A DNA stretch of 63,701 nucleotides, filler included, from Octopus bimaculoides (lineage: Eukaryota): assembly GCF_001194135.2 (NCBI RefSeq). It is 9 parts of 9 records of this genome, joined end to end, with 100 filler letters (N's around TTAATTAATTAA, not from the genome) between each part and the next. Parts side by side here need not be neighbours in the genome. Positions count along the whole stretch, not along the records: positions 31,782 to 51,826 come from NC_069001.1; positions 51,927 to 53,436 come from NC_068999.1; positions 53,537 to 55,537 come from NW_026342842.1; 6 more parts are not named here. One strand, 5' to 3'. Below the pieces are notes generated by a model. It ran no database searches, was not told the origin of the DNA, and saw only the letters and a program-made list of their open reading frames with translations. The number at the start of each line of letters is the position of its first letter. The first letter of the stretch is position 1. A program made the translations under genes and the position numbers. Shown here piece by piece: positions 34,118-54,038 of this stretch.

Positions 34118-34341
34118 CTACACACACACAGATACCAGAGTAAGCACATAAATGTGAAACAAGGTGGGAAAAAGAGTACTCAAATACCAGAAGTAGAGTA
34201 ATATGCTTTATTTAAAAGCAGCAGAAATATACCAAAAGCTGTTCATCGGACAGTTTTGTTAACAAAACTGTCCGATGAACGGGAACATGAAACTCTGAGT
34301 AACAGCTTTTGTTATATTTCTGCTGCTTTTAAATAAAGTAT
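34118..34341. mobile_element. PLE-like terminal repeat with fold-back centred at 34260/34261
   Basis: Arms ...tttatttaaaagcagcagaaatata...aaaagctgtt...catcggacagttttgtt | aacaaaactgtccgatg...aacagctttt...tatatttctgctgcttttaaataaag. The left arm lacks a 23-nt block present in the right arm. Confidence 0.7.
34261..34313 (+). ncRNA. Type-I hammerhead-like fold with CCGANGA core
   Basis: Stem I AACAAAACTGT / ACAG(C)TTTTGTT, core CCGATGA at 34272-34278, stem II ACG-GGAA-CAT (one mismatch), GAAA-CTCTGAG-TA with H17=A at 34301. Confidence 0.6.
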
Positions 34342-35789
34342 ATATATATATATATATATATNNNNNNNNNNNNNNNNNNNNNNNNNNNNNNNNNNNNNNN
34401 NNNNNNNNNNNNNNNNNNNNNNNNNNNNNNNNNNNNNNNNNNNNNNNNNNNNNNNNNNNNNNNNNNNNNNNNNNNNNNNNNNNNNNNNNNNNNNNNNNNN
34501 NNNNNNNNNNNNNNNNNNNNNNNNNNNNNNNNNNNNNNNNNNNNNNNNNNNNNNNNNNNNNNNNNNNNNNNNNNNNNNNNNNNNNNNNNNNNNNNNNNNN
34601 NNNNNNNNNNNNNNNNNNNNNNNNNNNNNNNNNNNNNNNNNNNNNNNNNNNNNNNNNNNNNNNNNNNNNNNNNNNNNNNNNNNNNNNNNNNNNNNNNNNN
34701 NNNNNNNNNNNNNNNNNNNNNNNNNNNNNNNNNNNNNNNNNTGTCCATGTATGTGTGTGTACAGGCTTAAGTTAAAGATTAAGAAGCAGTTGTTTATTTA
34801 TTTAAGAAAACAAAACAAAACAAAAAAGAAGGAAAAAATCCTGATAATAAACCTGTTTTCTAATCATTTATTCGTCAAAAAACAAGTCTTCTTGTTTTGT
34901 TGTGTTTTGCCATTTTTTGTTGGATTTTTTTTTGTTTTCTTTTTCTTAATATTTTTTTTTTTTTATCTGTGAACTAAGGCCAAAAGTAAGTTACATAAAA
35001 GCAATTACATGGAACAAGATATTCTTTTCAAGAAATTAATAAAAAAAAAACTTTTAAAAGGAAAAAAAAAGACTAAAGAGAAAAAGTACAGAAAAACCAG
35101 ATTTTTCAAAAAGTTTCTTTTAACAGGTCACATTAGTGCAAAAAATAAGTGAAGAAAAAAGAAAAAGAAATAATGAAAGACTGACACTGTTTTCTATAAA
35201 ATTTTTAAAAAAGACTAAAAAACATAAATAAATAAATAAATGACCAAATAATTAGTCATGCATGTGTGTATGTTATTTATAATTAAGCAAAGATGACTTT
35301 TAAGAAATGTAAATATATTCAAAAAGCAAAGGAGAATGTATTAAAAAAAACTTTCAAATGAGGCAAAAATGTAACTTGTGTGTGGTTGTTAGAATCTGCA
35401 AGAAATGGCAGCCAAATCTTCTTTCATCCATACCTTGCTCAGAAAATGTAGCCCTAGACACTCAGTTAACCATTGGCACAGAAAGGGTGAATGAGTTGCT
35501 AAAGTGCTGGGTAAATATATCTTTTGGCATTTGTACGGATCCTCTACATATTCTTGTCCAAACTTCACACAACTTCTACATTTAGGGCCTGTGATTCACT
35601 GCCATGCACTAACAGTACTAAGTTCATGGACAAGATCAGAAACATCAAGAGTAAGTGCCACCCTCAATGAAATCCCTTTCATAGATATTGTTTACAGTAT
35701 TTGAAACAATTTTTTAAAAACAACTCCTAGTAATATTTAGCAATAAAAATATAATAGGAGGGTATTGTAGTTCGCTTGAAGCATTGTGT

Positions 35790-36095
35790 ATTGTTTGTAA
35801 AGAATAAAATGTTTTGAATGGTACAACAAATGCACTATAATACAAAAAAAAAAAGGACTATATACTTGTTGTAATTTAGTTATCTATAGTCCGATGATAT
35901 TTCAGAATACAATTCCTTCTTCAGATCTTCTTAGCTGGAGTCTCTGCTATAAACTAAGAAAATCTGAAGAAGGAATTGTAATTCCGAAATATCATCGGAC
36001 TATAAATAACCAAATTACAACAGGTATATAGTCCATTTTTTGTTCTATAGTACAAGTTGTACCATTCTAAACTGTTTATTCTTTACAAATATAAT
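35790..36095. mobile_element. Large palindrome (PLE inverted pseudo-LTR-like)
   Basis: ggactatatacttgttgtaatt...cagatcttcttag mirrored by ctaagaaaatctgaag...caacaggtatatagtcc. Arms extend to tttgtaaagaataaa / tttattctttacaaa. Confidence 0.75.
35962..35996 (+). ncRNA. Minimal hammerhead motif with canonical core but weak stem I (mirror copy on minus strand near 35894-35927)
   Basis: CTGAAGA at 35964-35970 + A, stem II GGAAT-TGTA-ATTCC, GAAA, palindromic ATAT, C17 at 35993. Stem I only 2-3 bp. Confidence 0.5.
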
Positions 36096-36699
36096 AGGAT
36101 TTTTTAAACATTGAATAGTTATGAGGGGGACACCAGAGTAAAATAAAAGGGTCCAAAATGGTTCAGCACCACCGGTTTACAACAACAAAGAGCATGTGAA
36201 ACAGTGCTTCATCAGTTAAAGTGGTGAACTGGCAGGGCTTTTGTACAGTTTCCATCAACCACATTCACTCACAAGGTACTCGTCTGCCTGAAGACCTCAC
36301 AGAAGGCTCTTCCCCAAAGTGTTGGACAGTGGGACAAAAACTGCAGCCATGTGGTTCTGAAGCAAACTTCTTAAACCATACAGCCATACCTCCCCACATG
36401 ATTTCCCCCACAGCCATACCTGTGCCAATTTTTTCAGTTTATACAGATATCTGCTATTGTCTATTAATTATAACTATTATTAATGTTTTTATGTGTACAC
36501 ACACCTTATATACATAACTGAGATTAAAATATGTCAGAAAAAAAAAGGATTCAGTTGGTGTGACTTGTGAAAGTAGAACCTCTCTACACACAGAATATAC
36601 TTAATATATATATATATACACACACAAACACACATATTTCATGCATGTGTGCATATATACACATACATATTGTGTGTATTTGTGTGCGTATATATAAGC

Positions 36700-36950
36700 C
36701 ATTTTAATGATGCATCCTGCCTTGACTCTTCGAAATGCCTGTGCTAGAATGGGGGCAGCTGATGAAGGAAAATGTTCTCTATGTGGCCTGTGTGTGTTCT
36801 GTACTCTGGTTATTATTATTTTTTTGTCTACGTTTTGTTTTCAATGTCCTGTACCCAGATATGCACCTATATATACAGGTAGATGTAGGTATGCACATAC
36901 TTGTACGTATATATGCATATACTCATTTATTATTTGTTATATATATATAT
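36700..36950 (+). repeat. Interspersed repeat, second copy at about 45738-45940
   Basis: Shared actcttcgaaa.gcc...aatgg.ggcagctgatgaaggaaa.gttctct.tatgtggcctgtgtg...gtacccagatatgca.ctatatatac. Confidence 0.7.
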
Positions 36951-51556: not shown

Positions 51557-51823
51557 CAGGGGTTTTCAAACTTTTTGACTTGCGGACCCCTTTATATTTC
51601 AGGCTTTACCTTATAAACGCTTATGAAATTTATACATAAATATTTGCTTAAAATAACATATATTTTTACATTTATTTATTTAACAGTATTTAACAAATAG
51701 GTTTATTGTCAATTAAAAGATTTCGATTAAAAAACATAAATAAAATCAAATTGCCCATAAAAAGTATTTGCTGTCCACGGACCCCCTGTCTTGTCCTTGC
51801 GGACCACAGTTTGAAAACCCCTG
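51557..51823. mobile_element. hAT (Charlie-like) MITE
   Basis: TIRs caggggttttcaaact / agtttgaaaacccctg. Right flank runs into a gap, so the TSD cannot be checked. Confidence 0.75.
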
Positions 51824-52451
51824 CTGNNNNNNNNNNNNNNNNNNNNNNNNNNNNNNNNNNNNNNNNNNNNTTAATTAATTAANNNNNNNNNNNNNNNNNN
51901 NNNNNNNNNNNNNNNNNNNNNNNNNNTATATATATGTGTGTGTATATATATATATGATATTAATATATATGTTAATCCTCTGTGTGTGTGTGTGTGTGTG
52001 TTTTGTGTGTGTGTGTATGGATATGTGCATACTGTCTTAAATGAATGCATATTTGAACTTCCATATATTCTAGAAAAAATACAAAATCATCTGAAAATAC
52101 AGGTACATGTGTGTAGGAGTTGATTATGTAGATATATTTGCACGAATGTGCGTATATGTGTATGAGAGCGCGCGCGTATATGAACGTGTGTAACTATGTG
52201 TGTGTGTATGACTGTGTGTCTAGCGAGAAGAGGAATGAAGGCGTAGAGTAAAAACCTTTTTTTATTAATATAAATATAAAAAGTTGATATTCTGTTTTAT
52301 AATTCAATTAAAATTTTCTGTTCGATATTTTTGGTCTCTCAATGGCCTTACACACACACCCACACACACATACACACACACACACACACAAACATATATT
52401 ATATGTATATATATACATGTAAATATATATATATATGTATGTCTTTGTGTG

Positions 52452-52482
<31 letters not shown>

Positions 52483-53960
52483 ATATATATATGTACACAG
52501 AGACAGATGCATACAGATATAGGTATATTTGTGTGTTGATATATATGTATGCATGAGTGTGTGCGCGTGCTTCTATATACATACATACATACATATATAT
52601 ATGCATATAGAAATATGTTTATATGCATATATATTTGTATATATATATATANNNNNNNNNNNNNNNNNNNNNNNNNNNNNNNNNNNNNNNNNNNNNNNNN
52701 NNNNNNNNNNNNNNNNNNNNNNNNNNNNNNNNNNNNNNNNNNNNNNNNNNNATATAGACCTCAATGCTCAACTGGTACTTATTTTATCAATCATTGATGG
52801 ACAAAAAGCAAAGTCGACTAAGCAGAGTTTGAACTTAGAACGTAAAGATGAACAAAATGTCATGAAACAATCCGCCCGGCGTTTTAACGACTGGCCTGCT
52901 ATGAGCTTTGATATTAATATTCATAGTAAGCTGATAAGACGGTGAACTGGCAGAACCATTAATACGCCGGACATGTGCTTAGCGGCATTTCATCCGTCCT
53001 AACATTCCGATTTAAAATTCCACCGAAATCGACTTTATCTCTTATCATTCACCAAAACTAGTGACTTAGTGCCAAAATCTTAAACCAGTATTTATTGTAA
53101 GCTAGAGAGGATCATGGATTGTATATAGACTCTACTTAAATTAATACAGTCAGAATTATGAGCTTCTTGTCGTTTCTGAATAGCATTTTCAACACAGCAA
53201 TTTCACATTATCGTTTGTATTGTACTCACTTGAATGTAATTTTAGAGATATATTAAAAAAAAACGCTGTCTGTTTTATACTTCTAGCTAATATTAGAACA
53301 TATATTAGAACATATATGGATGTTCTCAGCCATACTTGCCTCTTCTGATATATGCATATGCATACTTCCTTTCTCTCTTTCTTCTCCTCTCTCATTTATA
53401 TATATATATATATATAATATATATATATAATATATANNNNNNNNNNNNNNNNNNNNNNNNNNNNNNNNNNNNNNNNNNNNTTAATTAATTAANNNNNNNN
53501 NNNNNNNNNNNNNNNNNNNNNNNNNNNNNNNNNNNNATATATATATATATATATGCATGTATCCGGCAATGCGAAAGTATGTCTGTATATATATACGTAT
53601 AATTATATATGTATGTCTAAATATATATGTATTATGTTACGTGTATGCCCGTAAACACCAGTGTGTATATGAGGGTGAGGTTGCGCGCACACACACACAC
53701 ACACACACACATATACATGTGTGCATATGTGCGTGGATATCTGTGTATGTATGAGTACGTACATACAATGTATGTTTGTGTGTGCATGTGCATGTACGTA
53801 TACATGTTTGTGTGAGTGTGTACGTAGGTAGACGTTGTGAACGCAGGAGGTTTATGTCTATGTATTGTAAGAATATTGTTGCGTGTATTTTTTATATTTT
53901 TTTTCTTTTTGTACCTAATTAGAGTAACTTCCTTTTTATTCAACTTTTTTCATAGAGTCT

Positions 53961-54038
53961 GTTGCTATTATTAGCCGACGAGAATGCATCGTAGCTCTTC
54001 GCTCTGACATTCGAAACTCTGAGTACTATAACGACAAC
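53961..54038 (+). ncRNA. Extended type-I hammerhead-like fold with CCGANGA core
   Basis: Stem I TTA(T)TAG/CTATAA plus distal GTTG/CAAC across an internal loop. Core CCGACGA at 53975-53981, stem II GAATG/CATTC with a 21-nt loop, GAAA-CTCTGAG-TA (H17=A at 54025). Confidence 0.6.

Follow-up and report, generated by a model that had tools for sequence, protein, structure and literature searches.

Is a hammerhead ribozyme in which the uridine at position 4 of the core has been replaced by a cytosine the mark of a copy that decayed after insertion, or can it be the inherited state of a whole retroelement family? This question is raised by two loci in a stretch of 63,701 nucleotides of Octopus bimaculoides DNA (NCBI RefSeq assembly GCF_001194135.2; nine parts of nine records joined through fillers of 100 letters), called the window below. 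A first-pass annotation had described at these loci two type I hammerheads with the core CCGA(T/C)GA instead of CUGANGA, and had read them as a selected U4C lineage of the hammerheads of Penelope-like elements (PLEs) rather than as decay. The lineage part of this reading stands for the first locus: C4 is the majority letter of its family (family A) in sequencing runs from three organisms. Both motifs likely come from the terminal repeats (pLTRs) of PLEs, and that they represent a selected ribozyme is plausible. The system is not of a new kind, since elements of this class, folds of the dimer type and the U4C change had all been described before; no report was found of C4 as the majority state of an animal PLE family.

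Two hammerhead motifs with a cytosine at position 4

A descriptor of the type I hammerhead that leaves position 4 free matches the window exactly twice, at 34272-34301 and 53975-54025, and both matches read CCGA. In 200 simulations with locally matched dinucleotides, the CCGA descriptor gave 0.025 matches on average, with one match in five simulations and two in none. The parts of the two motifs are as follows.

34261..34313, plus strand: type I hammerhead motif with short stem III, family A (locus 1); predicted cut after 34301
34261-34271, plus strand: 5' strand of stem I, locus 1
34272-34278, plus strand: core C3-C4-G5-A6-U7-G8-A9 (CCGAUGA), locus 1; C4 is 34273
34279-34288, plus strand: stem II, locus 1; A-U pair, C.A mismatch (34280/34287), G-C pair, loop GGAA
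34289-34292, plus strand: GAAA, locus 1
34293-34299, plus strand: stem III, locus 1, closed by A15.1-U16.1 (34292/34300)
34292..34300, plus strand: palindromic stem III with its closing pair, locus 1; 9 nt with a central mismatch, predicted dimer helix
A34301, plus strand: H17, locus 1
34302-34313, plus strand: 3' strand of stem I, locus 1; 4 bp, bulged C34306, 7 bp
53961..54038, plus strand: type I hammerhead motif, family B (locus 2); predicted cut after 54025
53961-53974 / 54026-54038, plus strand: stem I, locus 2; 3 bp, bulge, 3 bp, 3x3 internal loop, 4-bp distal helix
53975-53981, plus strand: core CCGACGA, locus 2; C4 is 53976
53982-53986/54008-54012, plus strand: stem II, locus 2; 5 bp, with a 21-nt loop able to extend the hairpin
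54013-54016, plus strand: GAAA, locus 2
A54025, plus strand: H17, locus 2

At both loci, three helices surround the core in the type I order, with GAAA and UH in place. The canonical core C3-U4-G5-A6-N7-G8-A9 is departed from at position 4 alone, where both loci and most of family A have C; all other core bases are canonical. As the annotation had indicated, stem I is complementary across the predicted cut site at both loci, although interrupted at locus 2, and the copy near 54 kb has a distal helix past an internal loop. Locus 2 is the better formed of the two motifs: it has a G10.1-C11.1 pair, its stem II reaches 5 bp and bears a long loop, and its stem I is interrupted. In the locus 1 copy, stem II is weak, its second pair being broken by the C.A mismatch.

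The only sequence that blastn finds in common between the two loci is a 13-mer running from GAAA to the cut site. It occurs twice in the window in its exact form; with two mismatches allowed, there are 3 matches for 1.74 expected, which is not significant by itself. Stem III is palindromic and identical at the two loci, and a duplex of two copies of its 9 nt, mismatched at the centre, is predicted at -7.9 kcal/mol. Such a short palindromic stem III, which permits dimers, is what is found in PLE pLTR hammerheads. Since its loop has 3 nt, the hammerhead is not expected to be the lowest-energy fold of a monomer, and the minimum-energy fold of neither monomer is a hammerhead.

The shared GAAACTCTGAGTA block, which the annotation had also noted, does not argue for a common C4 lineage. 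A position-blind scan of metagenome contigs, which gave at least 121 stretches, revealed one unrelated PLE family, likely from animal host DNA, of which 45 distinct copies among the matches listed carry the same 13-mer, 44 of them with U4 and one with C4. The 13-mer is thus a common PLE stem III and not the badge of a C4 lineage, and as a sign of kinship between locus 1 and locus 2 it is ruled out. The same family sets the frequency of a one-off U4C change at about 2% (1/45), which makes two independent changes of this kind unlikely. Open reading frames (ORFs) matching the PLE profile were present at 6 of the 121 loci listed. At one metagenome locus (L037), the motif occupies the interval between two successive ORFs.

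Position 4 across family A

Reads and contigs were aligned to 33960-34341 at a likeness of at least 80%, a comparison that speaks for family A and not for other families. Four runs were placed in this way: 994 reads of X21 (an RNA run, organism A), 4365 contigs of X1 (organism A), 7255 of X16 (organism B) and 388 of X17 (organism C). Among the 40 of 88 difference rows listed, there is none for C4 at position 34273, with 34272, 34274, 34276 and 34278 all listed. The weakest rows listed stand at about 17-20% in their best run, and U4 at 34273 is therefore likely below about 17-20% in all four runs, a bound and not a count. A differing majority letter would have shown up, since one does at 34287, where the depth of the three contig runs is 94%, 81% and 84% G. 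The same position can also be read on an inverted copy described below (34248 G>A): the change reaches 60 of 3946 in depth in X1 (1.5%, 2 contigs) and 151 of 1141 in X16 (13%, 4 contigs), it is seen in one contig of X17 (5.8/19.9), and in 0 of 12 reads of X21. C4 is thus the majority letter in all three organisms, and the family consensus with CUGA that the annotation had named as its own refutation is not what is found for family A.

The G at 34287 restores the second pair of stem II, so the mismatch in the locus 1 copy is private decay. In the contig runs, the large differences fall on sites that hammerheads tolerate. N7 is C, the letter of locus 2, in 8%, 67% and 61%; the centre of loop III (34296 T>A) differs in 27% in X1 and in 3% and 10% in the other two; the stem I bulge at 34306 differs in 54%, 23% and 23%, and the helix end at 34313 in 13-14%. 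C3 and A9 differ in less than 1%, U16.1 in at most 1.4%, and G5 in 1-7%, with changes of the CpG-decay type. Such a distribution shows signs of constraint. The stems of families A and B are wholly different yet paired, and the variation in family A avoids most paired and core sites.

C4 and G5 form a CpG in a window that is depleted of CpG (observed/expected ratio 0.42), and ordinary CpG decay would therefore turn C4 into U4. That C4 persists in three organisms suggests that it is at least not disfavoured in the master elements. It is on these two grounds, variation on tolerated positions and the persistence of C4 despite decay towards U4, that selection appears plausible.

The RNA run behaves differently: several sites of the core, namely C3, G5, A9 and U16.1, show differences of 15-30%. 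A few decayed but expressed copies may be their source, or editing. Places with A>G and T>C are also more numerous in this run (17 and 17, A9 included) than in the contig runs (4-6), possibly through A-to-I editing of fold-back transcripts, a signal not separable from expressed variant copies. Editing as the explanation was not established, as C>T and G>T are also high in X21 and the individuals differ.

The insertion at locus 1 has a fold-back anatomy, whose parts outside the hammerhead are the following.

34132..34260, minus strand: inverted head-to-head copy of the family A repeat, with stem I and CCGATGA kept and 23 nt absent
34314..34339, plus strand: 3' part of the repeat behind the hammerhead, family A; ends in AATAAAG, then (TA)n and an assembly gap

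The inverted copy contains, at 34203-34260, a third CCGATGA of the window, which the annotation had not mentioned. The 23 nt gone from it are stems II-III and lie between two AAC microhomologies. It extends about 70 nt further 3' (its tail) than the forward copy, to the family end at 34132. At about 34130 the depth jumps from tens or less to hundreds of thousands; the loose ends near 34130 are mostly (TA)n, and those at 34259-34266 are of mixed sequence. Family A is therefore a repeat of roughly 150 bases, from stem I to an end flanked by (TA)n. In X1, depth adds up to about 7e5 over the core, while the single contigs listed have 17-72. Although depth cannot be equated with copy number, thousands to tens of thousands of copies may be estimated from it. 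PLE insertions have been described as marked by a truncated copy in inverted orientation, a tail on one side and a microsatellite target (PMC8557442), and all three are found at locus 1. The PLE context proposed by the annotation is thus supported, by the (TA)n fold-back anatomy here and by a Neptune-type fragment near locus 2.

The deletion in the inverted copy was considered as a trace of cutting in vivo. One of its breakpoints fits the cut site, but the 3-nt AAC microhomology explains it equally well, and no joint of this deletion form is among the 15 of 103 joints listed. Loose ends in 34132-34341 suggest sister subfamilies with a common 3' tail and other stem I sequences; their agreement is low (0.5-0.8) and the two strands were not seen on one molecule. 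Copies of a SINE-like repeat end lie at 226-273, 14490-14543, 15282-15363, 33955-34005, 49401-49450 and 57719-57763, and one of these copies lies near the inverted arm at locus 1.

A proposed slowed hammerhead and its alternatives

With moderate confidence, the two motifs are best read as slowed but still-maintained pLTR hammerheads of PLEs, with C4 inherited in family A and with cutting mainly as a dimer or together with the protein of the element. C4, as the majority letter of family A in three organisms, is an inherited variant, for which slower self-cutting is predicted; a master element would have acquired U4C and would then have been copied thousands of times. The loop of stem III would be too tight for a monomer, and two motifs in a tandem transcript would instead pair through the palindrome and form two active sites. 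A dimer arrangement through a short stem III has been described for animal type I hammerheads (PMC4209133), as has the dimer cleavage of such hammerheads (Lunse et al., as cited in PMC6765202). The cut after H17 would be slow, perhaps occurring only with the element's protein. In a lizard PLE hammerhead, cutting is assisted by a protein and the uncleaved RNA is the main insertion template (PMC11167929). C4 would weaken the uridine turn, and most of the RNA would escape cutting and be reverse-transcribed whole. This last step fits family A copies in which the core, upstream of the cut site, is kept; depth over the core is of the same order as that behind the cut site, a rough comparison, as depth is no copy number. 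Both copies in the window are probably dead-end insertions. The one at locus 1 is probably inactive, because its stem II is mismatched and because it would be trapped in a hairpin with its inverted partner (predicted at -75.8 kcal/mol).

Several observations weigh against this reading. Family A has an A10.1-U11.1 pair and a stem II of 3 bp, and in its minimum-energy fold the CCG of the core is paired with stem II. As limits on the observation itself, the monomers of locus 1 and locus 2 are not unusually stable (z of -0.80 and +0.18), and Rfam, searched with E up to 10, gives no hammerhead model match at either locus; over the whole window, its matches are just miRNA-type noise driven by microsatellites and hairpins (among the matches listed, 150 of 225), in a sequence rich in microsatellites and assembly gaps. 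No PLE coding sequence was found near locus 1 with a PLE profile run over the window, and for family B, locus 2 is tied to its endonuclease fragment by position and strand only. The bound on U4 at 34273 is derived from its missing row among the 40 of 88 listed, and the conservation of the core across copies may reflect few master elements and not selection. At the RNA level, X21 reads are about equal on both strands, with no sign of element-driven transcription. The RNA ends that the annotation had proposed to look for were not seen: no pile-up is listed at the predicted cut site of locus 1 in about 6% of one ordinary RNA-seq run, a weak test of low power, and an active PLE hammerhead likewise gave no such ends (PMC11167929). 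When a type III hammerhead was subjected to deep mutagenesis, every single or double change in the CUGA region left it with low activity, apart from the C3-G8 swap (PMC9901934), and U4C itself lowers activity in vitro (PMC3088659). With no cleavage evidence found, these published losses of activity weaken the idea of a selected ribozyme.

The alternative that survives best, possible though rather improbable, is a founder effect, in which U4C disabled cutting in an ancestral master where cutting was dispensable, the fold being kept as a protein-binding or structural signal or through descent from few masters. The poor activity of CUGA mutants and the missing RNA ends speak for it. So does the finding that hammerhead mutants left the insertion of a purified PLE in vitro unaffected (PMC11167929), as well as the spread of Naiads without canonical hammerheads (PMC8557442). 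A second variant core (A6U) in the same window, described below, further suggests that cores are relaxed. However, two families whose stems are unrelated each have intact catalytic bases and an intact set of helices, C4 hammerheads with perfect and diverse stems recur in phage contigs, and a viroid U4C variant works in vivo (PMC3088659).

The phage evidence comes from two scans of viral contigs. In a position-blind scan, a helix filter retained 119 of 134 distinct matches among those listed, of which 118 have U4 and 1 has C4. A scan restricted to C4 gave full hammerhead helices with long and varied stems in 28 of 103 distinct matches, again among those listed, the filter having no chance control. 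C4 therefore does occur in nature, though rarely.

It is unlikely that the variant is fully active, with C4 compensated by distal contacts (between the internal loop of stem I and loop II, clearest at locus 2) or by the dimer. In its favour, the better-formed motif of locus 2 has G10.1-C11.1, an interruption in stem I, and a stem II of 5 bp with a long loop, and tertiary contacts have been proposed to offset variant cores (PMC3088659). Nevertheless, even PLE hammerheads whose core is canonical cut slowly (PMC4209133), none of the double mutants of a hammerhead stabilised by tertiary contacts made up for changes in CUGA (PMC9901934), and the roughly comparable depth over the core and behind the cut site means that most copies keep the upstream part. 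Copy-specific decay, with an independent U4-to-C change after each insertion, or plain coincidence of motifs is very improbable: one-off U4C exists in the metagenome family, Rfam recognises neither motif and the evidence on C4 as a family letter covers family A only, but the majority in three organisms largely refutes it for locus 1 and no simulation gave two matches.

Comparison with known systems places the inherited and presumably slowed C4 hammerhead close to the type I hammerheads of metazoan PLEs (min-HHR, with a short palindromic helix III; Cervera and De la Pena 2014, PMC4209133). They share the topology and a stem III suited to dimers, and they also occur as dispersed solo copies, in close inverted pairs and as many families per genome with different stems. 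The difference lies in the core, which is only CUGA or UUGA in the portion of the supplement alignment compared, where CCGA occurs only outside cores. The loci described here have no extra nucleotide between A9 and position 10.1, and family A has the pair A10.1-U11.1. The viroid variant (Ambros and Flores 1998, via PMC3088659) shows the same natural core change, which "considerably decreases activity in vitro" while the viroid stays infectious; there, C4 belongs to one sequence variant in a plant RNA replicon, whereas here it is the majority state of an abundant animal retroelement family. The phage-contig hammerheads share the C3-C4-G5-A6-N7-G8-A9 core inside intact, diverse helices, but they are a minority (1 of 119 structured matches listed), have a long stable stem III, fold as monomers and are not retroelements. 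Non-LTR retrozymes (PMC7229834; bioRxiv 10.64898/2026.07.22.740005) are also non-coding animal repeats that show a relationship to PLE ends and contain a type I hammerhead. They form head-to-tail tandem arrays of roughly 300-nt units, in contrast to the solo or head-to-head copies found here; each locus has one intact copy in the assembled sequence, and both border gaps where neighbours could be hidden.

In the literature compared, U4C was found only in PMC3088659. The portions considered of PMC6765202, PMC7229834, PMC2837043, PMC11014351, PMC3376415, bioRxiv 10.1101/2021.04.23.441226 and bioRxiv 10.64898/2026.07.22.740005 contain no relevant statement on C4; the survey of Lunse et al. 2017, which stands outside this comparison, may list it.

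A broader proposal can be offered tentatively: a PLE group in this animal lineage would have fixed the C4 hammerhead in several families with unrelated stems, in thousands to tens of thousands of copies, since a slowed ribozyme gated by dimers or protein would suit the element better, and C4 would be held against a CpG pressure that restores U4. If so, searches requiring CUGANGA miss a whole C4 population, and the canonical, U4C and A6U cores found within 20 kb provide a natural series for testing the purpose of PLE hammerheads. Censuses based on CUGANGA descriptors would undercount such genomes. The hammerheads that PLEs keep cut slowly, and cutting was dispensable for insertion in vitro (PMC11167929); one suggestion is that they merely parasitise PLEs (PMC8557442). 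An abundant family fixed for a core change that is expected to slow cutting, beside canonical families of the same genome, allows a test of whether the rate is tuned down, irrelevant or rescued.

The surroundings of locus 2 and further motifs

Two features lie downstream of the second hammerhead.

54039..54157, plus strand: AT-rich 3' flank of locus 2, ending in (TA)n, then a gap of 843 N
55118..55438, plus strand: Neptune-type PLE protein fragment, with a zinc-finger-like linker and the start of a GIY-YIG endonuclease, ending at a stop

This endonuclease fragment is found 1.1 kb downstream of locus 2, beyond the gap and on the same strand. The fragment is 52% identical to P0001, and its relatives comprise 3049 matches at E 0.001, including proteins of 700-760 residues. 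Six relatives were scanned, and RVT_1 was recognised in 5 and GIY-YIG in 4 of them. A cysteine linker precedes the endonuclease in the relatives, one linker cysteine being changed in the window copy, and such a linker before a C-terminal GIY-YIG is the mark of Neptune and Nematis elements (PMC8557442). A profile built from 23 long relatives has this stretch as its sole match in the window (E 4.5e-26). Pfam by itself recognised neither the fragment nor P0001 nor two ORFs of L037.

Neptune-clade PLEs resemble the relatives of the fragment by their C-terminal GIY-YIG after a linker of the CX2-5CxxC type, and share microsatellite-flanked insertions, the inverted truncated copy and the one-sided tail (PMC8557442). 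They differ in that the window fragment is broken and has a gap between it and locus 2, and in that family A has no coding sequence nearby; the one-sided extension of family A is also longer, about 70 nt against the 30-40 nt described for PLEs (PMC8557442). Family A as the end of a Naiad with an overlooked hammerhead was considered and is unsupported: five family A motifs are absent from the supplement of PMC8557442, in which line breaks could hide a match, and this idea is further weakened by the nearby endonuclease being of the C-terminal type.

A pyrimidine tract ending in AG (53900-53957, plus strand) stands directly before stem I of locus 2 and resembles the 3' end of an intron. A similar tract is present at L037, and in Drosophila Penelope an intron ends at helix I (PMC4209133). 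L037 belongs with L053/L054 and L062 to a metagenome PLE family with a canonical core, in which the basal pair of stem II is U.U; among the contigs of this family, one has two motifs on opposite strands about 1.3 kb apart. When viral contigs were searched with the animal motifs, the 7 and 9 matches obtained all lacked hammerhead helices, and no PLE relatives were found in these contigs. A single match in a prokaryote genome, which has neither GAAA nor stem III, was dismissed as chance.

Other minimal hammerheads are present in the window. A head-to-head inverted pair at 35800-36083 (35924 to 35896, minus strand, and 35964-35992, plus strand) has the canonical core CUGAAGA and arms that are 91-96% complementary. 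Since this pair has the fold-back anatomy of locus 1, canonical and variant families coexist in the window. The A6U core belongs to a minimal PLE-type hammerhead at 37878-37915 (plus strand; core CUGUUGA at 37883-37889), with a stem I of 5 bp, an extra A after A9, a stem II of 4 bp and a palindromic ACGU stem III. The relaxed descriptor by which it was found gave 3 matches, against a mean of 0.35 in simulations. Finally, fragments of other non-LTR retrotransposons are recognised at 31306-31680 (plus strand; RVT_1, E 6e-16) and, weakly, at 62529-62996 (plus strand; zf-RVT).

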